From positions 7,648 to 71,647 of the forward strand of contig NZ_JBOEFY010000037.1 in the NCBI RefSeq assembly GCF_050633145.1: a DNA stretch of 64,000 nucleotides, read 5' to 3'. The notes beneath the pieces were generated by a model, which worked only from the letters and a program-made list of their open reading frames with translations, was not told where the DNA came from and searched no databases. Numbering within the stretch: position 1 is the stretch's first letter; every line of letters starts with the position of its first letter. Shown piece by piece: positions 4,982 to 17,590 of this stretch. The translations under genes were made by a program, and so were the position numbers. The stretch comes from Kordia sp. (GTDB lineage: Bacteria; Bacteroidota; Bacteroidia; Flavobacteriales; Flavobacteriaceae).

Positions 4982-5545
4982 TCACTCCTTCCACTCCAAC
5001 GATTCAATCAACTTTCGAATATCTTTTTTAATATACATAACGGCAGGATAAATAGAATCGTAATTTGGTCGTGCATTAAAGTATAGTGAACCTGTTAAGA
5101 AGTGACTTGTACTATCTGTTACATAAAATTGTGCTTGCGAAGCGGCATTTCCTTCCACTTCATACACCATTCCGTATACGCCTTGTTCTTTATTATCATA
5201 AATTGTAGGCTCAATATTATCAGCTTTTACAGCATGTTCATACGTTAACTTTTGTACATCTTCAAGCAATTGATTTAAGTTTCCGTTTACTGGTACATAC
5301 GATAAGTGTAGTGTTCCGTTTAAAGCTGGATATTCTAAGTTAATCCAACAATTTTTCTTCGGATCAATCAGTGCAAGTTCGTTTTTATCAAACGTATACG
5401 GACAATCCGATTGCACTTTTGCATACTTTGGTGTTGGATATTGCAAGCGTAGAAAAGCATTTGGTTTTGGCAATACTTCGCCTTCACACGAACTAAAAAG
5501 AATACTTACTAATAAAAAGATGCTTGTGTATTTTATAATGTTCAT
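4982..5545 (-). CDS. gldD: Gliding motility lipoprotein GldD
   Basis: Lipobox FSSC, PKPNAFLRLQYP, GNAASQAQFYVTDST..HFLTGSLYF, PNYDSIYPA; downstream of gldE. Confidence 0.92.
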   Translation of the reverse strand: MNIIKYTSIFLLVSILFSSCEGEVLPKPNAFLRLQYPTPKYAKVQSDCPYTFDKNELALIDPKKNCWINLEYPALNGTLHLSYVPVNGNLNQLLEDVQKLTYEHAVKADNIEPTIYDNKEQGVYGMVYEVEGNAASQAQFYVTDSTSHFLTGSLYFNARPNYDSIYPAVMYIKKDIRKLIESLEWKE

Positions 5546-6849
5546 TCTTTCAGAGTTACTTTTACTTGTTTCAATCGTTTATTATCAATTACTTCCACAG
5601 TAAACGTATAATTACCAAAGTTTATTTTATCTCGCACTTTTGGAAAACCTCTAAAAATCTCCAACACAAAACCTGCCACCGTTTCCGATTCACCTTTATG
5701 TGATTCAAATTCTGAATTGTCTTCCAATCCGATAATCTTATAGAAATCTTTTAAATTGGTTTTTCCTTCAAAGACATAGTTTTTATCGTCTATTTTGGAA
5801 TAGTGTACATCTTCATCGTCAAACTCGTCACTAATATCACCTACAATTTCTTCAATAACATCTTCCAAAGACACCAAACCTGAAGTTCCTCCATATTCAT
5901 CAACCACAATTGCCAAATGAATTTTCTTCTCTTGAAATTCGCGTAATAAATCATCTAACTTTTTATTCTCAGGTACAAAATACGCATCGCGCAAAAGCGT
6001 TGTCCATTTATAATTTTTCGCATCAATATGTGGAATTAAATCTTTTACATATAAAATTCCCAAAATATCATCCAAACTATCTTTATACACAGGAATTCGT
6101 GAGTACCCTTTTTTAGTAATTTCACTCAAAACGGCTTCAAACGTCATGCTTTCTTTCAAGGCAAAAACATCCATTCGTGGCTGCATCACTTGTTTGGTAT
6201 CTGTATTTCCAAAGGACACAATTCCTTGTAAAATTTTCTGTTCTTCTTTCGTTGTTTCGTCTTCTGAAGTCAATTCTAATGCTTGCGACAACTGATCTAC
6301 TGAAAGATTGGAACGACGTTTTCCAAGTTTTTTCTGAATTAATCCGGAAACAAAACTCATTGGCATACTAATAGGCGCAAACAATTTATCCAATACATTC
6401 AGTGGATATGCCATCATTGCTGAAAACTTATGTTTATTACGACTTGCATATACTTTGGGAAGAATTTCACCAAAAAGTAAAATTAAAAAAGTAACGACTC
6501 CAATTTTTATTACCCAACGAAACCATTCTGGAGAGATTTCTGCAAAAAACTTATCACTAAGAGAAGCAAATAATAAAACGGTAGCAATATTAATAAAGTT
6601 ATTAGCGACTAAAATGGTTCCTAACAACCTTCTTGGTTTTCGAAGTAATTTTGCTGCAAGTCGTAAACTTGCCGAATCAGATTCCTCAGCTTCATTTATT
6701 TCGGTTTGTGATAACGAAAACAGTGCTACTTCTGCACCAGAAATTAAGGCAGAGCAAAACAGTAAGACACCAAAAAAAACAATCTTGAAAATATCGAGTC
6801 CTTCAATGGACGCTAAAAAGATTAGTAAACTGGGTTCTGGATCCAACAT
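5542..6849 (-). CDS. gldE: Gliding motility-associated hemolysin/CNNM-CBS protein GldE
   Basis: DUF21 TM region, CBS pair (GYSRIPVY, AIVVDEYGGTSGLVSLED), CorC domain; overlaps gldD by 4 nt. Confidence 0.9.
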   Translation of the reverse strand: MLDPEPSLLIFLASIEGLDIFKIVFFGVLLFCSALISGAEVALFSLSQTEINEAEESDSASLRLAAKLLRKPRRLLGTILVANNFINIATVLLFASLSDKFFAEISPEWFRWVIKIGVVTFLILLFGEILPKVYASRNKHKFSAMMAYPLNVLDKLFAPISMPMSFVSGLIQKKLGKRRSNLSVDQLSQALELTSEDETTKEEQKILQGIVSFGNTDTKQVMQPRMDVFALKESMTFEAVLSEITKKGYSRIPVYKDSLDDILGILYVKDLIPHIDAKNYKWTTLLRDAYFVPENKKLDDLLREFQEKKIHLAIVVDEYGGTSGLVSLEDVIEEIVGDISDEFDDEDVHYSKIDDKNYVFEGKTNLKDFYKIIGLEDNSEFESHKGESETVAGFVLEIFRGFPKVRDKINFGNYTFTVEVIDNKRLKQVKVTLKE

Positions 6850-9174: not shown

Positions 9175-10722
9175 GTGAATAAAGAATTAATAATTAGATC
9201 CAATTCCTCTGAAGTTGATTTTGCCTTGCTAAAGGATGGAAAACTTATTGAATTACATAAGGAAGCAGATAATAATGACTTTGCAGTTGGAGACGTATTT
9301 CTTGCTAAAATAAGAAAACCCGTTTCAGGACTTAATGCAGCTTTTGTAAACGTAGGCTACGAAAAAGATGCCTTTTTACATTATCATGATTTAGGACCAC
9401 AACTTCTTTCCTTATTAAAATTTATAAAACGTGTAAGCACAGGTAAATTAAAAGATTATACATTAAAAAACTTTCCGTTTGAAACCAATATTGACAAAAA
9501 TGGTAGCATCATGGATGCTGTAAAAGCCAATCAATCAATATTAGTTCAAATTGTGAAAGAGCCAATTTCAACCAAAGGTCCTAGAATTAGTTCTGAACTT
9601 TCTATTGCTGGTCGATATATTGTACTTGTTCCATTTTCGGAACGTGTTTCCATATCGCAAAAAATAGAAAGCAAGGAAGAAAAGGATCGATTAAAACGTT
9701 TGGTACTCAGTATCAAGCCTAAAGGTTTTGGCGTTATTGTACGTACAGTAGCTGAAGGTAAAAAAGTAGCTGAATTGGACCAAGATTTACAAAATTTGTT
9801 GACCAAATGGTCTACAATGTGTAAAAAATTGTATAAAGCTGAGCATCCTTCGAAAGTATTAAGTGAAATGAACAAAGCCTCTTCTATTTTAAGAGACATA
9901 TTTAATGAGTCATTCACAGGAATTCAAGTCGATGATGAAGATCTTTATTACGAGATTAAAGAATACGTGCAGAAGATTGCACCAAAAAAAGAGTCTATTG
10001 TAAAATTGTACCAATCTAAAGTTCCACCCTTTGAAAAATATGGTGTAGAACGACAAATTAAAACCTCTTTTGGAAAAACAGTTTCCATGAGTAAAGGCGC
10101 TTATTTAGTAATAGAACACACTGAAGCATTACATGTTATTGATGTAAACAGTGGAAACCGTTCTAACAAAGCCAAAACACAAGAGGACACTGCATTAGAA
10201 GTCAACATGATTGCCGCAAAAGAAATTGCTAGGCAACTCCGTTTACGAGATATGGGAGGAATCATCGTAATCGACTTTATCGATATGACCAATGCAGATC
10301 ACCGCAGAACTCTATTTGATCATTTGAAGACAGAAATGAAAGATGATAGAGCGAAACATAAAATATTACCTCCAAGTAAATTTGGTTTGGTACAAATTAC
10401 GCGACAAAGAGTACGACCAGAAGTAAATATTAAGACACGAGAAGTAAATCCGAATGGAAGTGGTAGCGAAGTGGAAGCTCCAATACTTATCGTTGATAAA
10501 ATTACAACTGATCTAGAAAGAATTTTAGCCAATAAAGATGGCTATAACGGAGTTACGTTAAACACGCATCCTTTTATTGCGGCGTATCTCACAAAAGGAT
10601 TTCCATCCATCCGTTTTAAGTGGTATATGAATCATAAAAAATGGGTAAAAATATTACCAAGAGATGCTTACACGTATCTAGAATATCGTTTTAAAGATAA
10701 AAACGATGAAGTTTATAAATAA
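9175..10722 (+). CDS. rng: Ribonuclease E/G family
   Basis: S1 region (GLNAAFVNVG..KDAFLH), IEHTEALHVIDVNSG, LRLRDMGGIIVIDFIDM. Confidence 0.93.
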   Translation: MNKELIIRSNSSEVDFALLKDGKLIELHKEADNNDFAVGDVFLAKIRKPVSGLNAAFVNVGYEKDAFLHYHDLGPQLLSLLKFIKRVSTGKLKDYTLKNFPFETNIDKNGSIMDAVKANQSILVQIVKEPISTKGPRISSELSIAGRYIVLVPFSERVSISQKIESKEEKDRLKRLVLSIKPKGFGVIVRTVAEGKKVAELDQDLQNLLTKWSTMCKKLYKAEHPSKVLSEMNKASSILRDIFNESFTGIQVDDEDLYYEIKEYVQKIAPKKESIVKLYQSKVPPFEKYGVERQIKTSFGKTVSMSKGAYLVIEHTEALHVIDVNSGNRSNKAKTQEDTALEVNMIAAKEIARQLRLRDMGGIIVIDFIDMTNADHRRTLFDHLKTEMKDDRAKHKILPPSKFGLVQITRQRVRPEVNIKTREVNPNGSGSEVEAPILIVDKITTDLERILANKDGYNGVTLNTHPFIAAYLTKGFPSIRFKWYMNHKKWVKILPRDAYTYLEYRFKDKNDEVYK

Positions 10723-10756
10723 CAAAAAGCGACCATCACTGGTCGCTTTTTTTGTT
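10643..10756 (+). repeat. Left direct repeat (att-like): last 80 nt of rng plus terminator
   Basis: 76/80 identical to 15486..15564, with a 44-nt perfect core (10648..10691 = 15491..15534). Confidence 0.85.
10724..10753 (+). terminator. rng intrinsic terminator
   Basis: aaaaagcgacca-tcac-tggtcgcttttttt. Confidence 0.85.
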
Positions 10757-10979
10757 TGTGGTTGTTATTTACCTTTATAACATATTATGAATATATTTTA
10801 ATATCTTATTAGAAATTTTACTTGTAATCTATTATTAATGTAATGAGTTAGATTAGAATTAGAAATTTTGAACCTATACGCAAAGGCTTGGAGGAAAATG
10901 TAGATTGAAAAAAATCTAACCTACCGAAAATCTAGTGAAATCAAGGGTTATAGAAAACGTTACTCAGAATTAAAAGCGA

Positions 10980-12560
10980 ATGCAAAATAATTTTAAATCA
11001 TATCGAATTTGTCAAATAGCCGTTTCCTTATTTACCGAAGTTGGGTTTGACGAAACATCAATGATTGATATTGCAGAAAAAGCTGCAATACCAGAAGTCG
11101 AATTGTATTCCTACTTTGGTCACAAAAACGATATCATTTTATTCTTTTTTCAAAGCATTAATTCAGACTGGCAGATAGCAGTTGATAATATTTCTTCAAA
11201 AAAAATAGCAAATCGATTTGAGGAGGCACTGATGCTAAAGGTTAAACTTATAACACCTTACGTTGGTTTTTTAAATCAAATATTAGGATTGCTAATCCAA
11301 AGTTCAAAAATTGGTGTAAAAGCTTCAAGAACTTCACACATTCGAGCTATCGGAATGCAAACGATGCAATCTATAATAGATGGATCAACCAACGGAAAGA
11401 AAACACAAAAAAAGGTTCCCCAACTTCCATCAATGATGTATTTCGCGCATTGGGCGGTTTTATTCACTCACATGCAAACAGAAGATAACGAAAAGGTTAC
11501 TACCTTAATAAAATTGTTATCCAAATCACTAAAACATTCTAAGAACTTTGCTCTAATTAAAAAGCTATTTCCAGTGTTCGATGAATTAGGGAAAATTACT
11601 GAGGATTTACTTAATGTGAATACTAAGTCGAAGCATACATTAGATAAGGAAATTTTAAAAGTAATCTTCAACAATCGGAAAGCAACCAATCTCGAAAAAC
11701 AATGTGAATTAAACCAATGCCCTACTTGTTTTGAGGTACATGAACATGCTGTGAATTTCTTTACCAGTCAAAACAAACCCATTCATTTTATTCTGCCTGC
11801 ATTCCCAGCGAAGTCACCAAACCGATCAAAAACAATCGGAAAAACACCAGATCTTGGAGAAGAAATAGCATTAAAAACGTTGGCGTCAATGTGTGCCGAG
11901 ATTGAAAGCATTTATGATCCTGGTGCTCAAATAACAATCTGTTCGGATGGTCGAATTTTTTCTGAACTCGTTGGAGTTTCTGACCACGATGTTACGGAAT
12001 ATGTTCAGGCTGTTTCTGATATGATTGCCCAACATGGAATAAAAAACATCAATGTTTTAAATCTCGAAGATTTCTGTGAAGGCGAAGACTTTGAAGAAAT
12101 GAGAAAGAACTTACTGACTGAATACGCTGAAGATATAGAAAATTTAAAATCTAAGATTAAAACTAAGCCAGATGCATTAAGTTTGTTTAATGGGATGCAT
12201 CGATTTATAACAGAAGATCGTCTTGGAATTGACAAAGACAAATCAAAAACGCGCGTAAAAGAAGAATCAAAACTAATCGCAATTAAAGTCATTCAACACA
12301 GCAATGCTTGGACTCGATTCTTGGCGAATGTTTATCCCGAAGCTATTCGGTTGTCTATTCATCCGTATCCTGCACATCACAAAAAAATAGGGATTCAACT
12401 AACGAAAGCTGAAGACAATTGGTTAACTCCTTGGCATGGAGTTATTACATTACAAAAAAATGACTACTTGTTGATGAAAAAAAGCAAAGCCGAAGAAATT
12501 GGAGCAACGCTAATTTACAATAATGATATTCCGTATTATTATTCCCTAAACGAAGACTAA
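10980..12560 (+). CDS. TetR-family regulator fused to PvcA/IsnA-type isocyanide synthase
   Basis: N-term A..LF..VGFDETSMIDIA..A.....LYSYF..K HTH; C-term ILPAFPAKSPN, PDLGE, ICSDGRIF, SNAW, IRLSIHP, WLTPWHG motifs. Confidence 0.88.
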   Translation: MQNNFKSYRICQIAVSLFTEVGFDETSMIDIAEKAAIPEVELYSYFGHKNDIILFFFQSINSDWQIAVDNISSKKIANRFEEALMLKVKLITPYVGFLNQILGLLIQSSKIGVKASRTSHIRAIGMQTMQSIIDGSTNGKKTQKKVPQLPSMMYFAHWAVLFTHMQTEDNEKVTTLIKLLSKSLKHSKNFALIKKLFPVFDELGKITEDLLNVNTKSKHTLDKEILKVIFNNRKATNLEKQCELNQCPTCFEVHEHAVNFFTSQNKPIHFILPAFPAKSPNRSKTIGKTPDLGEEIALKTLASMCAEIESIYDPGAQITICSDGRIFSELVGVSDHDVTEYVQAVSDMIAQHGIKNINVLNLEDFCEGEDFEEMRKNLLTEYAEDIENLKSKIKTKPDALSLFNGMHRFITEDRLGIDKDKSKTRVKEESKLIAIKVIQHSNAWTRFLANVYPEAIRLSIHPYPAHHKKIGIQLTKAEDNWLTPWHGVITLQKNDYLLMKKSKAEEIGATLIYNNDIPYYYSLNED

Positions 12561-14299
12561 TGGAGTATTCAATTGAAAAAATCGTTCCATTTGGTGTGCT
12601 TATCACCAATACCAAAAACACAGGTTCTATTGAACAATTTGACAAAGAACAACTTTACCGTTGGATTTCCGAATACAAGGTAGTTCTCTTTCGTGGCTAC
12701 ACACAACTACCCAAACAAAAATTGGCTTTATTTGGACAACGATTGGGAAAACCATTGCAATGGCCATTCGGATCGATTAACGAGTTAAAATTTAAACCAG
12801 ATACTAAGAATTATATTTTCACAAATCACAAGGTTCCTGTTCATTGGGATGGTGCATTTAGAGGTACCATTCCGCATATTATACTTTTTCAATGCATCAC
12901 AGCTCCAAAAAAGGAAGATTTTGGAGGAACAACATTTGTAAATACAGAAAAGATATTAGCGAATGCTAGTCAGGCGCAACTCGACGAATGGGAAAAGATT
13001 TCGATAACTTATACCACTGAAAAATTGGCGCATTATGGAGGTGAAATCACGCAGAAATTCATTGCCAAACATGAGGTTGAAGGTCAAAAGGTAATCAGGT
13101 ATGCAGAAGTTGTTGATGACATTAACCCTGTGCAATTGTCTGTTCATGGCCTTGATACTAAAACGTTCGATACATTTGAATCTGAGATTGAACACCTTTT
13201 GTATAGTCCTGAAAACTTATACACGCACAGATGGGAAGATGGAGATCTCGTTTTAGCTGATAATCATGCTCTTTTGCACGGACGAGAAGCTTATAAAAAG
13301 CAGAACGAACGTCATATTCAGCGAATCAACATCTTACACAGACCAAAAAATTCATTAAAAAGAATCATAGAAAACAGCCTAACAATAAGAAGAAAAGAAT
13401 TCTTTGTTGCGGAACTCCCTATATTTATTATTCCTTTATTATTGAGTATTACAGCTTGGAATGACTTCCTTAAACCCAGTTTATATTTAGGAATGATTGC
13501 CATATTTATGTTATTCAATATTGGTGATATGATTAATTGTTATGCTGATTACAAATTAGACTCAATCTACAAGAGCCATCTATCGAATGCAGTATATGAG
13601 CTTGGAAAAAAAAATGTGAAATGGCAAATTATTGTATCTGGAATAGTAGCGTTGGTGCTCACAACTATAATCGCGATTTCTACAAACCAATTGTATTTAA
13701 TACCCTTTACACTTTTTGGAACTTTTATGGGGCTTCAATATTCGATCAAACCATTTAAATTTAAATCCAGCGGAATGTTCCAGTTCTTCTGTCTTTGGGC
13801 AATTATTTTTTCTGGTCCAATGGTATATATTGCGATTATTACATCTGGACTTCCTAGTCTGGTTTACTTTCTAATATTTACCTTTTATGGTTTTCATCAA
13901 ATGGGGATTATTTTATTAAATACTGCAGAAGATTATCCAGAAGATTTGAGCGATAACCTCAATACAGTTATCGTCAGATTAGGTCTGCATCGATCTATGA
14001 AAATCGCTTTTAATATTGTTTTGTTCTCTGGAATTATTCTTAAAGCTTGTATGATTTATTTATTCTACGAACTCTCTGTGCCAATTTACATATATGTATC
14101 TATTCTGATTTTTAGTGTTGGATGGTTAAAAATCGTCACAGAATATAAAACTATTGTCACTAAGTTAACTACGCTTTCTGTGGATGATGCCGTTAAGGAA
14201 ATTAAGAAAAATGGTATGAAAGTTCCTGAATGGCTCAAATTAGGAGCCTATACATTTCTAGTTCCAATTATCACTTATTTTTTATGGAAAATACTCTAG
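12560..14299 (+). CDS. PvcB/IsnB-like Fe(II)/2OG dioxygenase (TauD fold) fused to UbiA-family prenyltransferase
   Basis: VVLFRG, HWD (HxD), GGTTF, HRWEDGDLVLADNHALLHGR..RHIQR; then multi-TM domain with NIGDMINCYADYKLD and NTAEDYPEDLSD Asp-rich motifs. Confidence 0.85.
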   Translation: MEYSIEKIVPFGVLITNTKNTGSIEQFDKEQLYRWISEYKVVLFRGYTQLPKQKLALFGQRLGKPLQWPFGSINELKFKPDTKNYIFTNHKVPVHWDGAFRGTIPHIILFQCITAPKKEDFGGTTFVNTEKILANASQAQLDEWEKISITYTTEKLAHYGGEITQKFIAKHEVEGQKVIRYAEVVDDINPVQLSVHGLDTKTFDTFESEIEHLLYSPENLYTHRWEDGDLVLADNHALLHGREAYKKQNERHIQRINILHRPKNSLKRIIENSLTIRRKEFFVAELPIFIIPLLLSITAWNDFLKPSLYLGMIAIFMLFNIGDMINCYADYKLDSIYKSHLSNAVYELGKKNVKWQIIVSGIVALVLTTIIAISTNQLYLIPFTLFGTFMGLQYSIKPFKFKSSGMFQFFCLWAIIFSGPMVYIAIITSGLPSLVYFLIFTFYGFHQMGIILLNTAEDYPEDLSDNLNTVIVRLGLHRSMKIAFNIVLFSGIILKACMIYLFYELSVPIYIYVSILIFSVGWLKIVTEYKTIVTKLTTLSVDDAVKEIKKNGMKVPEWLKLGAYTFLVPIITYFLWKIL

Positions 14300-15420
14300 A
14301 CACATATGATTGCATAATTATTGGTGGAGGTATCGCAGGCTTATCGCTATCAATACAACTATCTATAAAACAGCGAAATGTGTTATTAATTGAGAAAGGA
14401 AATTATCCGTCTCATAAAGTTTGTGGAGAATATATTTCGAATGAAAGTATTTCTTTTTTAAATGGATTGGGTTTAGAGGAAGTCCTTGCTGATTCTCCTA
14501 AAATAGATCGTTTATTCTTAAGTTCTCCATCCGGAATTAGCGTACGAAGAAAATTGGATATTGGCGGAATAGGAATATCTAGATATAAGCTAGATTATGA
14601 ACTTTATCTACAAGCGAAAAAAACCGGAGTGGATATCAAGACCGATACAAAAGTGACTAATATAACACGAGAAGGACATGGTGCATATAGTGTTGAAACA
14701 TCAAAGCAATCTTATCAGACATCGATTGTGATTGGCGCATTCGGAAAAAACTCTTCTATTGATAAGGTTCTTGGTCTTAATTATAAAGCGAAAAACAAGA
14801 AAAACCTATATGTTGCGGTCAAATATCATATCAAAGCAGATTTTGATACGTCTGTAGTAGAAATGCATAATTTCGAAGGAGGTTATTGTGGAATTTCATC
14901 TATTGAAGACGACAAGATTAATTTGAGTTACATAACTAAGGCTTCAGCGATTAAAAAATTTGGAAGTATTGAAAAAATGGAAAAGCATGTTTTATCAAAA
15001 AACCCACATCTAAGAAAATATTTTGAAGATGCAACGTTTCTTTTTAAATCTCCTTTAACCATATCGCATCTACATTTTGGCACAAAAAAAACAGTTGTAA
15101 ACGATATTATTATGATTGGCGATTCTGCTGGAAATATTGCACCACTTAGCGGGAACGGAATGAGTATAGCTTTGAAAAGTTCGCAGTTAGCTTTCAATGA
15201 AATTGAGCGCTATTTTAATTCTAAAATCTCGTATAAAAAAATGACTGATTCATATAATGAGCAGTATAACATTTTTTTTAAGAACAGAATCAGTCATGCT
15301 AAGTTTATTAATTTATTTTTCTTAAGCCCTTTCTTTTCGAATATAGCTTTCGCGTTCTTGAAAATTTTCCCAAAGCCTATTGATTGGATGAGCAAAAAAA
15401 TACGAGGAGATCATTTTTAA
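14284..15420 (+). CDS. FAD-dependent oxidoreductase (geranylgeranyl reductase / flavin monooxygenase-like)
   Basis: IIGGGIAG, HKVCGEYIS, IGDSAGNIAPLSGNGM; start moved to MENTLD (14284), overlapping the upstream gene's stop. Confidence 0.82.
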   Translation: MENTLDTYDCIIIGGGIAGLSLSIQLSIKQRNVLLIEKGNYPSHKVCGEYISNESISFLNGLGLEEVLADSPKIDRLFLSSPSGISVRRKLDIGGIGISRYKLDYELYLQAKKTGVDIKTDTKVTNITREGHGAYSVETSKQSYQTSIVIGAFGKNSSIDKVLGLNYKAKNKKNLYVAVKYHIKADFDTSVVEMHNFEGGYCGISSIEDDKINLSYITKASAIKKFGSIEKMEKHVLSKNPHLRKYFEDATFLFKSPLTISHLHFGTKKTVVNDIIMIGDSAGNIAPLSGNGMSIALKSSQLAFNEIERYFNSKISYKKMTDSYNEQYNIFFKNRISHAKFINLFFLSPFFSNIAFAFLKIFPKPIDWMSKKIRGDHF

Positions 15421-15485
15421 TTGTAATTATAATCTGCTGCTATTTTTACTACTATTATTAAAATAACATATCCCATTCAAGAAAC

Positions 15486-15597
15486 GGGTTAAAATATTAC
15501 CAAGAGATGCTTACACGTATCTAGAATATCGTTTAAAGATAAAGACGATAAAGTTTATAAATAATAAAAGCGACCAGTGATGGTCGATTTTTTTGTT
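15486..15597 (+). repeat. Right direct repeat: degenerate copy of rng 3' end plus terminator
   Basis: Three substitutions and a 1-nt deletion relative to the rng end; terminator loop gtga instead of tcac. Confidence 0.85.
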
Positions 15598-15791: not shown

Positions 15792-16481
15792 ATGAAACAA
15801 CAAAACCTACTATTACTACACGGCGCTTTAGGAAGTGAAGCCCAACTCAAACCATTACAAGAACTCTTATCTAACGACTTTAATGTACATACTGTAAACT
15901 TTGAAGGTCACGGCGGACGCACTTCAGATGATGAATTTGATATGGAACGATTTGCCGAAAATGTTGTTGAGGAGCTTCAAACACTAGGAATTTCCCAAAC
16001 ACATATTTTTGGGTATAGCATGGGCGGTTATGTTGCGTTAACTCTTGCTAAGAAATATCCAGAAATGGTAGAAAGCATTGTAACGCTTGGCACAAAGTTT
16101 AATTGGAATTTAGAAAGCGCACAAAAAGAAGTCAAAATGTTGAATCCAGAGAAAATTGAAGAAAAAGTGCCTGCGTTTGCAAAACGTCTTCATGAATTGC
16201 ATCAACCAAATGACTGGAAAAAAGTGATGCAAAAAACAGCCGAAATGATGCTATCCTTAGCGAATGGCAAAAGATTAACTGATTCAGATTTACAACACAT
16301 TCAACATAAAGTACTGATCGGAATTGGATCTCTAGACACTATGGTTACGATTGAAGAATCTGAAAATGCAGCAGCTCAATTACCAAACGGAATTATACAA
16401 ATTATTGAAGCTGTAAAACATCCGATTGAAAAAGTAGATACAAATGTGTTGACAACTGTTATTCGAAAATTTATTGCTTAA
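15792..16481 (+). CDS. Alpha/beta hydrolase
   Basis: LLLHGALG, GHGG, GYSMGG nucleophile elbow. Confidence 0.88.
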   Translation: MKQQNLLLLHGALGSEAQLKPLQELLSNDFNVHTVNFEGHGGRTSDDEFDMERFAENVVEELQTLGISQTHIFGYSMGGYVALTLAKKYPEMVESIVTLGTKFNWNLESAQKEVKMLNPEKIEEKVPAFAKRLHELHQPNDWKKVMQKTAEMMLSLANGKRLTDSDLQHIQHKVLIGIGSLDTMVTIEESENAAAQLPNGIIQIIEAVKHPIEKVDTNVLTTVIRKFIA

Positions 16482-16490
16482 TTCTAACCT

Positions 16491-17060
16491 GTGAAATCAC
16501 AATTATTTACATATTTAAATCGTTACGTATCTTTTGAATCTGAAGAAATTGACTTGATATTCAATTCACTTTCACAAAAAACATTTCACAAAAAAGAATT
16601 CTTATTAGCCCAATATCAGGTTTGTAAACATCGCTTTTTTATTCTTGAAGGTTTGGTTCGTTACTATAAAACCGACAGCGATGGCAATGAAAATATAAGT
16701 CTCTTCGGAATTGAAAATTGGTGGATTACAAATTTAGATAGTTTTATAAACGAAGTTCCTTCACACAATGCAATTCAGGCAGTTGAGAACACAACTGTGT
16801 TATATATTTCAAAGAGCGATCTAGAGTTGTTGTATGAAAAAGTTCCAAAACTCGAACGCGCGTTTCGAATCATCACAGAAAAAACACTGATTGCTATTCA
16901 ACGAAAAGATGAGATTTACATGAAACAAAATAGCAAAGAACGTTATTACAGTCTTGTAGATACGATTCCAAATTTTGCCCAACGCGTTCCGCAATATATG
17001 ATTGCTTCCTATTTAGATATTACGCCCGAATATTTAAGTGAAATCCGAAAAAACAGGTAA
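16491..17060 (+). CDS. Crp/Fnr family transcriptional regulator
   Basis: cNMP-binding fold (FILEGLVR), C-terminal VPQYMIASYLDITPEYLSEIR HTH. Confidence 0.9.
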   Translation: MKSQLFTYLNRYVSFESEEIDLIFNSLSQKTFHKKEFLLAQYQVCKHRFFILEGLVRYYKTDSDGNENISLFGIENWWITNLDSFINEVPSHNAIQAVENTTVLYISKSDLELLYEKVPKLERAFRIITEKTLIAIQRKDEIYMKQNSKERYYSLVDTIPNFAQRVPQYMIASYLDITPEYLSEIRKNR

Positions 17061-17140
17061 ATTCATGACTTTCTTAAGATACCTTAAGAAGTTTCAAGCG
17101 TGTTCCAAGGTAGTTTTGTAGAAACTATAAATCATACAAC

Positions 17141-17590
17141 ATGGAACGAATTTCATACGGAGATATTCCCAAAGGAATGTTTGAACATTTACAAAAGATA
17201 GAAGTATATATTAAAGAATCTTCTATAGACAATCAGCTTTTAGAACTTATTAAATTACGTGTTTCACAAAAAAATGGTTGTGCCTATTGCGTAGATATGC
17301 ATCACAAAGAATTAAAGAAAACTGGAGAAACAGAATTGCGACTTTCTTCTTTGTGTGTTTGGGAAGAAACACCTTATTTTTCTGAAAAAGAACGCACAGT
17401 ATTAACTTTTGCTGATACGCTAACAAAACTACAACGAACTCCTATTCCGGATGCAGTATACAATTCGTTATTACAGTTTTTTGATAAGAAAGAGATTTGC
17501 ATACTTACACTCGCCATCACACAAATAAATACTTGGAATCGATTGATGAAAACATTTTTATTTACGCCAGGGAATTATGTAGCAACTTAA
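17141..17590 (+). CDS. Carboxymuconolactone decarboxylase/AhpD-like protein
   Basis: ELIKLRVSQKNGCAYCVDMH, FSEKER, INTWNR. Confidence 0.9.
   Translation: MERISYGDIPKGMFEHLQKIEVYIKESSIDNQLLELIKLRVSQKNGCAYCVDMHHKELKKTGETELRLSSLCVWEETPYFSEKERTVLTFADTLTKLQRTPIPDAVYNSLLQFFDKKEICILTLAITQINTWNRLMKTFLFTPGNYVAT

Follow-up and report, generated by a model that had tools for sequence, protein, structure and literature searches.

The 64-kb stretch of Kordia sp. DNA considered here (64,000 nucleotides; hereafter the window, to which all positions refer) contains at positions 10980-15420 three open reading frames (ORFs), all on the plus strand, that encode an isonitrile synthase (ICS), an Fe(II)/2-oxoglutarate (2OG) dioxygenase, a UbiA-superfamily prenyltransferase and a flavin adenine dinucleotide (FAD)-dependent oxidoreductase. 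As judged by homology, they probably constitute a self-contained, horizontally acquired operon for a membrane-embedded prenylated aromatic isonitrile. The preliminary description of this DNA had proposed three coupled genes, four activities and intact catalytic motifs. The three genes are indeed present as intact, overlapping ORFs, the four activities are found, and the dioxygenase and UbiA motifs are invariant in 21 homologues; a TetR-fold domain of ∼210 residues on ORF1 had been missed. The genes and their domains are as follows.

10980-12560, plus strand: ORF1, 526 aa, TetR-fold domain and ICS
10980-11621, plus strand: N-terminal TetR-fold domain of ORF1 (about residues 1-214), with a helix-turn-helix (HTH) at residues 14-53 and a helical part resembling a ligand domain
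11622-12560, plus strand: C-terminal ICS domain of ORF1 (PvcA/IsnA/DIT1)
12560-14299, plus strand: ORF2, 579 aa, IsnB-like Fe(II)/2OG dioxygenase and UbiA prenyltransferase
12560-13360, plus strand: N-terminal IsnB/PvcB-like dioxygenase domain of ORF2
13361-14299, plus strand: C-terminal UbiA-superfamily domain of ORF2
14230 or 14284 to 15420, plus strand: ORF3, FAD-dependent oxidoreductase, 396 aa if counted from 14230
10757-10979, plus strand: region upstream of ORF1, presumed promoter and leader, carried on the inserted island described below

ORF1 and ORF2 share a single base in a TAATG junction (12558-12562) formed by the TAA stop of ORF1 and the ATG of ORF2. ORF2 and ORF3 overlap by 16 nt if ORF3 begins at ATG 14284, which alignment with homologues makes its likely true start, or by 70 nt from the upstream ATG 14230. 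Dozens of unrelated genomes have these genes in the same order, which puts the arrangement far beyond chance.

The C-terminal part of ORF1 (residues 258-506) matches the Pfam family DIT1_PvcA (PF05141; E 2.7e-79, 266.9 bits against a cut-off of 26.4) over profile positions 1-267 of 273, as a full-length family member. It scores 222 bits against PvcA (3e59) and 201 bits against PIsnA (9dh4), and its AlphaFold2 model superposes on these structures with Foldseek TMt values of 0.93 and 0.91, respectively (pLDDT 84.3 and pTM 0.78 for the ORF1 model). The motifs LPAFPAKSPN, CSDGR, SIHP and TPWHG are invariant in the homologue alignment. The domain reaches 237.9 bits against the cut-off of 600 for the equivalog NF045653 (L-tyrosine isonitrile synthase PvcA), and in the tree it falls outside the PvcA/PIsnA clade. 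No paper on the PIsnA structures was found in the searchable full-text literature, outside which most subscription journals lie.

ORF2 begins with a TauD domain (residues 26-256; E 8.6e-35) that matches PIsnB (7tcl; E 2.8e-58, 201 bits, TMt 0.87) better than PvcB (3eat; E 4.2e-38, 134 bits, TMt 0.80). Its iron triad H95/D97/H240, together with R255 and W68, is invariant in the 21 homologues; these residues align with H101, D103, H250, R265 and W74 of PIsnB, so that R255 and W68 match the carboxylate anchor described for that enzyme (R265 and W74). The remainder of the pocket is different. Two selectivity signatures have been published, a PIsnB type with K/R107 and N/H188 and a PvcB type with L107 and C188, the aromatic pocket of PIsnB being lined by M105-Y106-K107 and N188 (PMC9467999). 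In place of K107 and N188 the window enzyme has R101, within the motif HWDG-A99-F100-R101, and A182, and its family reads A-F-x at positions 105-107 and Ala at 188. The position equivalent to K107 is V/A/I/T in the family of dioxygenase-UbiA fusions and Arg in the window protein. This A-F-x/Ala pocket is found in 120 of the 120 fused homologues listed, in cyanobacterial I3 enzymes, and in 114 of the 120 nearest standalone homologues, all 120 of which retain HWDGAF. From these alignments, it is a third signature beside the PIsnB and PvcB types. The I3 enzymes of four loci with a tandem I1-I2-I3 layout (L099, L103, L106 and L096, from Fischerella PCC 9431, Westiellopsis, Fischerella CENA71 and Pelatocladus, respectively) read HWDGAFA...RFAEP, and therefore the rule opposing K107/N188 to L107/C188 misses a large third group. 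A forecast of decarboxylation from the K107/N188 rule was dropped, as the family belongs to neither class. The smaller Ala would widen the pocket, which might then admit an indole or an already prenylated phenol.

The remainder of ORF2 (residues 291-525) belongs to Pfam UbiA (PF01040; E 1.3e-15, 57.8 bits against a cut-off of 34.2). The motifs N326xxxD330xxxD334, D458xxxD462 and Y394-S-x-x-P-x-x-x-K402 are those invariant in the 21 homologues, which are 37-72% identical, and a C-terminal segment, IKKNGMKVPxWLKxGAY, is also conserved. The AlphaFold2 model of ORF2 (pLDDT 90.2, pTM 0.82) contains nine long helices corresponding to nine predicted transmembrane helices, and if the domain has the topology typical of UbiA enzymes, both the dioxygenase and the Asp-rich loops would lie on the cytoplasmic side. 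The nearest characterized families are ChlG/BchG, homogentisate phytyltransferase and phylloquinone-type MenA, and the sole match in the PDB is the chlorophyll synthase ChlG (E 2.7e-5). The subfamily is small and distinct: 1.84 billion proteins yielded 270 representatives, and in a Pfam check of 10 of these, 4 are linked to TauD and 6 have UbiA as their sole domain. The host genome encodes three trans-prenyl diphosphate synthases.

Some subfamily members differ in architecture. Five distant members of 490-580 aa (P0405, P0446, P0466, P0484 and P0423) carry the UbiA domain at the N-terminus, followed by a C-terminal extension of ∼250 aa that has no Pfam match. In a further protein, P0383 (1044 aa), a single frame runs through the C-terminal part of a TetR-like domain, an ICS, TauD and UbiA. 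It is either a genuine fusion or an artefact of deletion or assembly, and as a Rosetta-stone triple fusion it was given little weight, because it is truncated at the N-terminus and the last third of its ICS is missing.

ORF3 matches Pfam FAD_binding_3 and related families. Its best NCBIfam match is TIGR02032, the geranylgeranyl reductase (GGR) family (E 2.2e-35, 122.8 bits), and it also matches LodB/GoxB/QhpG, a group of Trp-hydroxylating maturases, and UbiH-type hydroxylases. The best matches in the PDB are Mpy16, PltA and CmlS. The protein contains the motifs GGGxAG, HKVCGEYIS, GGYCG and GDxAGNIAPLSGNGMS, the second and fourth of which are invariant in nine homologues. The invariant Cys of HKVCGEYIS is presumably the flavin-proximal Cys of GGRs (CGG/CGE motif); the aligned halogenases have V-G-E-S or I-G-E-S where ORF3 has CGE. 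Assignment as a halogenase was rejected, because ORF3 lacks both the WxWxIP motif (GGYCGxS stands opposite WVWQIP of Mpy16) and the catalytic Lys, with no conserved Lys in that stretch.

The cassette has many relatives. Counted as protein clusters at 90% identity, the TauD-UbiA and TetR-ICS fusions each number at least 120. Several members of the two lists come from contigs of equal size (for example, 257,687, 879,760 and 3,548,995 nt), which suggests that these contigs are shared, and the two genes are adjacent at every locus examined. The fused pair occurs in Bacteroidota and Acidobacteriota, named sources including Myroides odoratus, many Hymenobacter species, Taibaiella, Fluviicola, Pedobacter, Flavobacterium, Pyrinomonadaceae and Blastocatellaceae. 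Ten loci keep the order TetR-ICS, TauD-UbiA, flavoprotein between flanks that are different each time. Hymenobacter swuensis has a cassette ∼43% identical to that of the window on a 299-kb replicon (CP007144.1), possibly a plasmid, where its neighbors include KAP NTPase and CdiI-like genes.

Unfused counterparts were surveyed through 335 relatives of the standalone dioxygenases in species-representative genomes, and the loci of the best 80 were compared. In 67 of these 80 loci, ICS and TauD are followed immediately downstream by a UbiA gene from the same subfamily (30-44% identity); the other 13 have ICS and TauD but no UbiA. The unfused loci come from Acidobacteriota, Planctomycetota, Myxococcota, Abditibacteriota, Armatimonadota, Actinomycetota, Dormibacterota, Pseudomonadota and Bacteroidota, and their ICS genes likewise encode ∼530 aa. 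A Coq4-like protein (∼150 aa, HDxxH...E; signature LHDLHHVxTGxxTxxxGEAEIS) is encoded within the cluster in 46-48 of the 80 (e.g., 5504-5956 of locus L030 and 5543-5989 of L041). The genes of the unfused clusters are ordered TetR-like-ICS, Coq4-like gene where present, IsnB-like dioxygenase, UbiA. In all-against-all clustering of the neighbors at the 80 loci, the Coq4-like gene was the only extra conserved neighbor, and no conserved transporter, methyltransferase or prenyl diphosphate synthase was found. Among the loci examined, the Coq4-like gene and the flavoprotein never occur together, and no fused locus has the Coq4-like gene. By these comparisons the window cassette is a compact, fused variant of a large cluster family and is not unique to the window.

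Two loci outside this family have other partners. In Streptomyces sp. AC563 (L028, 9001-10863) an IsnB-like dioxygenase of the A-F type adjoins an ABBA prenyltransferase (PTase_Orf2, E 9.6e-50), with a 292-aa ORF upstream that has no Pfam match. This was the only prenyltransferase seen beside a related dioxygenase outside the ICS-UbiA family, and the locus may represent an actinomycete route to a prenylated isonitrile. In Scytonematopsis contorta (L027, 7731-11085) an ICS of 413 aa, an IsnB-like dioxygenase and a cytochrome P450 stand in a row, a layout that recalls xanthocillin-type dimerizing pathways.

The pathway that the window genes would support can be outlined in four steps. First, by homology, the ICS would act on an aromatic L-amino acid, Tyr or Trp, whose amine becomes an isonitrile with carbon from ribulose-5-phosphate. 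Second, the dioxygenase would hold the resulting α-isocyano acid by its carboxylate, through R255 and W68, and desaturate it oxidatively, most likely with decarboxylation, to a vinyl isonitrile. Third, the UbiA domain, tethered to the dioxygenase on the cytoplasmic side of the membrane, would prenylate the aromatic ring with a prenyl diphosphate as donor; prenyl transfer is proposed because of the fusion and the conserved gene order, and the nearest characterized relatives use C20 geranylgeranyl or phytyl donors. The second and third steps could run in reverse order. In the fourth and least certain step, ORF3 would either saturate double bonds of the prenyl tail, as GGRs do, or hydroxylate the ring. 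The product would then sit in the membrane with its isonitrile head group binding metal, and roles in metal handling, defense or antibiosis can be speculated upon. A prenylated vinyl isonitrile had already been put forward in the preliminary description, and the finding that ICS, IsnB-like and UbiA genes are adjacent or fused as the conserved genes of the locus speaks for that proposal, the product itself being an extrapolation from the enzymes; the accompanying suggestion of a copper chelator or algicidal compound finds no support in the sequence. The remark that known prenylated isonitriles depend on soluble prenyltransferases agrees with the ABBA enzyme of the Streptomyces locus. No pathway combining ICS and UbiA was found in the searchable full-text literature, which excludes most subscription journals, so that a prior description is possible.

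Several observations weigh against this scheme. Decarboxylation is not assured, because the dioxygenase fits neither published selectivity signature. The UbiA domain falls far below the curated subfamily cut-offs (best 33.8-51.6 bits against 212-313), which makes the acceptor, the regiochemistry and the donor length extrapolations. ORF3 stays under the TIGR02032 cut-off (122.8 against 158.8 bits), its profile scores higher against pyrrolyl and phenol halogenases in the PDB (75 and 58 bits) than against an archaeal GGR (47 bits), and the flavoprotein gene is not beside the core pair in two loci (L001 and L006).

The identity of the amino acid precursor, Tyr or Trp, stands at roughly even odds on the present comparisons. 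The Tyr systems PvcA/B and PIsnA/B form a clade of their own (100/100 support). The second clade holds the fusion family and also the I1/I2/I3 genes of the four cyanobacterial loci named above (Fischerella PCC 9431 and CENA71, Westiellopsis and Pelatocladus), whose tandem I1-I2-I3 layout we take to be the hapalindole type, for synthesis of a Trp-derived indolyl vinyl isonitrile. The fusion family is sister (91/87 support) to enzymes without assigned specificity rather than to the cyanobacterial clade. Assignment of the precursor by phylogeny was tried and gave no decision, since the Trp-type cyanobacterial enzymes share the clade and the pocket but are not the sister group. Partnership with UbiA and Coq4-like proteins would argue against Trp, as these normally handle para-substituted phenols.

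Of the proposed activities, that of ORF3 is the most open to another reading. The flavoprotein could be a ring hydroxylase, or some other oxidase of the head group, and the counterpart of the Coq4-like protein, with a hydroxylated and possibly quinone-like prenylated isonitrile as the product; this is a serious, if tentative, alternative. A reaction at the head group is favored because the flavoprotein alternates exclusively with the Coq4-like gene, the latter being confined to loci of the unfused type and the former to those of the fused type, and no Coq4 family member is present in the Kordia genome. Eukaryotic COQ4 acts on the prenylated ring of coenzyme Q precursors, and in bacteria class A flavoprotein monooxygenases perform equivalent hydroxylations. 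The matches of ORF3 to LodB/GoxB/QhpG and to UbiH-type hydroxylases, and a profile closer to halogenase and monooxygenase structures than to GGR, point in the same direction. The anticorrelated distribution could, however, also mean alternative tailoring, and the top family match of ORF3 is nonetheless to the GGRs, whose characteristic Cys it seems to retain, unlike the aligned halogenases. Saturation of the tail is favored because the nearest relatives of the UbiA domain use C20 donors in pathways that include a geranylgeranyl reductase. On balance, prenyl reduction by ORF3 appears slightly ahead of hydroxylation. Whichever reaction applies, the flavoprotein is missing beside the core genes in L001 and L006 and split in Myroides odoratus, and therefore it would not be essential to the core pathway. 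In the Myroides odoratus locus (L011, 9751-10883) it is divided into ORFs of 209 and 166 aa, probably by a frameshift, while both fused core genes are intact; an ISL3 transposase gene lies 7 kb upstream.

The N-terminal domain of ORF1 is matched by Pfam TetR_N (32.8 bits against a cut-off of 24, residues 14-53), and PDB entry 3c07 aligns to residues 10-213 (E 8.7e-8; Foldseek TMt 0.75-0.78), so that the model indicates a real TetR fold with an HTH and an all-helical ligand domain. It extends to the unfused clusters: the N-terminal extension of the ICS of L030 aligns with the window domain over ∼206 residues (26% identity, E 2e-15), and the N-terminus from a Polyangiaceae locus (L083) has a canonical HTH. 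A TetR-fold domain on the synthase is thus, by sequence similarity, a hallmark of the whole cluster family, and it would be either a regulator acting in cis or a module for lipid binding or docking.

If it were a regulator, ORF1 would be a bifunctional repressor-enzyme comparable to PutA or BirA, binding an operator in 10757-10979 and released by the lipid product or an intermediate. We regard this as possible but doubtful. The TetR_N score above the Pfam cut-off, the complete predicted fold, the canonical HTH of some unfused members such as L083, and the N-terminal domain of L030, which aligns with that of the window and has a more basic recognition helix, all speak for it. Against it, the recognition helix of the window protein is acidic (IPEVELYSYFG) and its acidic residues are conserved in the Bacteroidota/Acidobacteriota subfamily, the net charge over the first 60 residues of TetR-ICS proteins ranges from -4 to +1 in the family, and the only detectable match at the N-terminus of L030 is TetR_C. 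No operator-like palindrome is shared upstream of ORF1 across 11 homologous loci, and in the acidobacterial Pyrinomonadaceae locus just 7 nt separate the start of the TetR-ICS gene from the gene before it, too few to accommodate an operator.

A different product would result if the dioxygenase, like PvcB, kept the carboxylate as an isocyanoacrylate and UbiA then esterified that carboxylate, or O-alkylated the phenol, with a C20 chain to give a prenyl ester or ether. This outcome is improbable. Chlorophyll synthases, which esterify a carboxylate, are the closest UbiA families by hidden Markov model as well as the sole PDB match, although the similarity to ChlG is weak (27-52 bits). The mostly hydrophobic residue (V/A/I) at the K107-equivalent position of the family is nearer to the Leu of PvcB than to the Lys of PIsnB, but the window protein itself has a PIsnB-like Arg there, and its Ala at 188 differs from the Cys of PvcB. 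The better match to PIsnB than to PvcB also argues against it, as does the presence of the same AF/A signature in hapalindole-type I3 enzymes; AmbI3 and WelI3, presumably orthologues of these, are assumed here to decarboxylate to vinyl isonitriles. It is very improbable that UbiA is a mere membrane anchor of the dioxygenase or prenylates an unrelated acceptor, leaving a soluble vinyl isonitrile of the rhabduscin-aglycone or indolyl type, for although IsnA/IsnB pairs alone are known to yield bioactive vinyl isonitriles and UbiA is missing from the 13 loci noted above, the invariance of the Asp-rich motifs and YSxxPxxxK among such divergent homologues argues for an active transferase, anchoring makes no sense for the separate adjacent genes of many phyla, and a Coq4-like protein of polyprenyl-binding type co-occurs.

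The proposed route to a ring-prenylated vinyl isonitrile resembles several known systems in part. The rhabduscin/byelyankacin IsnA-IsnB pairs of Photorhabdus and Xenorhabdus (PIsnA 9DH4, PIsnB 7TCL) also combine an ICS with an Fe/2OG dioxygenase acting on an aromatic α-isocyano acid; the window enzymes keep this fold and every ligand of the metal and the carboxylate, and in the proposed window pathway, as in theirs, tailoring would place the vinyl isonitrile at the cell envelope. In rhabduscin the tailoring step is glycosylation, by a glycosyltransferase where the window has a fused membrane UbiA and a flavoprotein. The window enzymes are 36-38% identical to these proteins, lie in a separate clade (100/100 support), have an AF-x/A in place of an MYK/N pocket, and carry the TetR-fold domain on the ICS. 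The hapalindole, ambiguine and welwitindolinone clusters (AmbI1-3, WelI1-3) make the known prenylated isonitriles from an amino-acid-derived vinyl isonitrile and a prenyl diphosphate, and their I3 enzymes share the signature HWDGAF...R[FY]AEP and a large clade with the window domain. They differ in having two ICS genes (I1 and I2), soluble ABBA prenyltransferases and cyclases, in contrast to the single TetR-fused ICS and the UbiA of the window, which is an integral membrane enzyme fused to the dioxygenase, and the cyanobacterial clade is not the sister group of the fusion family. The I1-I2-I3 layout was confined to the Fischerella, Westiellopsis and Pelatocladus loci, and the window cassette is not of the hapalindole type.

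The paerucumarin genes pvcA-D of Pseudomonas aeruginosa share the PvcA/PvcB homology and a flavin-dependent enzyme after the ICS and dioxygenase. They include no prenyltransferase, and the selectivity residues of the dioxygenase differ from those of the window; PvcB keeps the carboxylate, and PvcC/D are two-component hydroxylases of the HpaB/C type. Ubiquinone, tocopherol and phylloquinone prenylation (UbiA, HPT, MenA, with ChlP-type geranylgeranyl reductase and COQ4) likewise depends on a UbiA with both Asp-rich motifs and on partners of the same repertoire, namely a GGR-family flavoprotein, as in the window, and COQ4, as in the unfused relatives. In contrast, the acceptor in the window pathway would be an isonitrile-bearing phenol or indole, the window domain scores under all the subfamily cut-offs, and none of these pathways has a fusion of UbiA with an Fe/2OG dioxygenase. 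On these comparisons, the cassette would work like an IsnA/IsnB pathway with a new membrane-bound tailoring, outside the Pvc, rhabduscin and hapalindole cluster types.

Isonitrile natural products are rare and potent metal ligands that include chalkophores, phenoloxidase inhibitors and antibiotics. To our knowledge, those derived from amino acids are either soluble compounds, glycosides, or products of prenylation by soluble ABBA enzymes. If the scheme above is true, handing a vinyl isonitrile to an integral-membrane UbiA would establish both a new class of lipid-anchored product and a new type of UbiA acceptor. As the conserved core comprises no more than three or four genes and recurs across numerous phyla from soil and the sea, the chemistry of one operon could cover several hundred orphan clusters. 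Further oddities of the family are the TetR-fold domain, obligatory on the synthase, and what looks like an exchange between Coq4-like protein and flavoprotein. A broader model joins these features, although taken as a whole it seems unlikely: ICS-IsnB-UbiA clusters of at least 70 bacterial species in about eight phyla, with a Coq4-like protein or a flavoprotein as fourth component, would make unrecognized isoprenoid membrane lipids with an isonitrile head group, whose function would be physiological and in the membrane, as in capture and delivery of copper or iron or protection of a metallo-enzyme, rather than that of a secreted antibiotic. In that model the TetR-fold domain would sense lipid or serve for docking, and so link the synthase reaction with the membrane enzyme.

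In the window, the cassette lies behind an RNase G gene whose product is 94-98% identical to Kordia proteins, in keeping with a host in this genus of marine Flavobacteriaceae, and it is bounded by two imperfect direct repeats of ∼120 bp.

10636-10756, plus strand: left direct repeat, the RNase G 3′ end (last ∼85 bases, in frame) and terminator hairpin
15479-15597, plus strand: right direct repeat, a degenerate second copy of the RNase G 3′ end and terminator

The left repeat includes the RNase G stop codon (10720-10722) and the terminator hairpin (10724-10751), and the right repeat is out of frame through a 1-nt deletion. The two are 84-93% identical piecewise, with 110 of 118 aligned bases identical overall; compared with five congeners, the left, in-frame copy is 90-97% identical and the right copy 89-92%. 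In congeners the alpha/beta-hydrolase gene found at window position 15792 comes straight after RNase G, representing the empty site. The dioxygenase-UbiA protein was not found in 18 genomes of the same genus and 22 further relatives, and the island DNA is absent downstream of RNase G in 14 Kordia loci, that of K. algicida OT-1 included. Because of the flanking repeats and the empty site in congeners, the three-gene cassette, with the 223 bp that precede it, is interpreted as a 4.84-kb, horizontally acquired insertion behind the RNase G gene. The island contains no integrase, transposase or any other mobility gene, and the repeats would fit a single crossover that integrated a circle with a homologous RNase G fragment. 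Past the island, at 16491-17590, a Crp/cNMP-binding regulator gene and a gene of the carboxymuconolactone decarboxylase family (AhpD-like) belong to the native flank.

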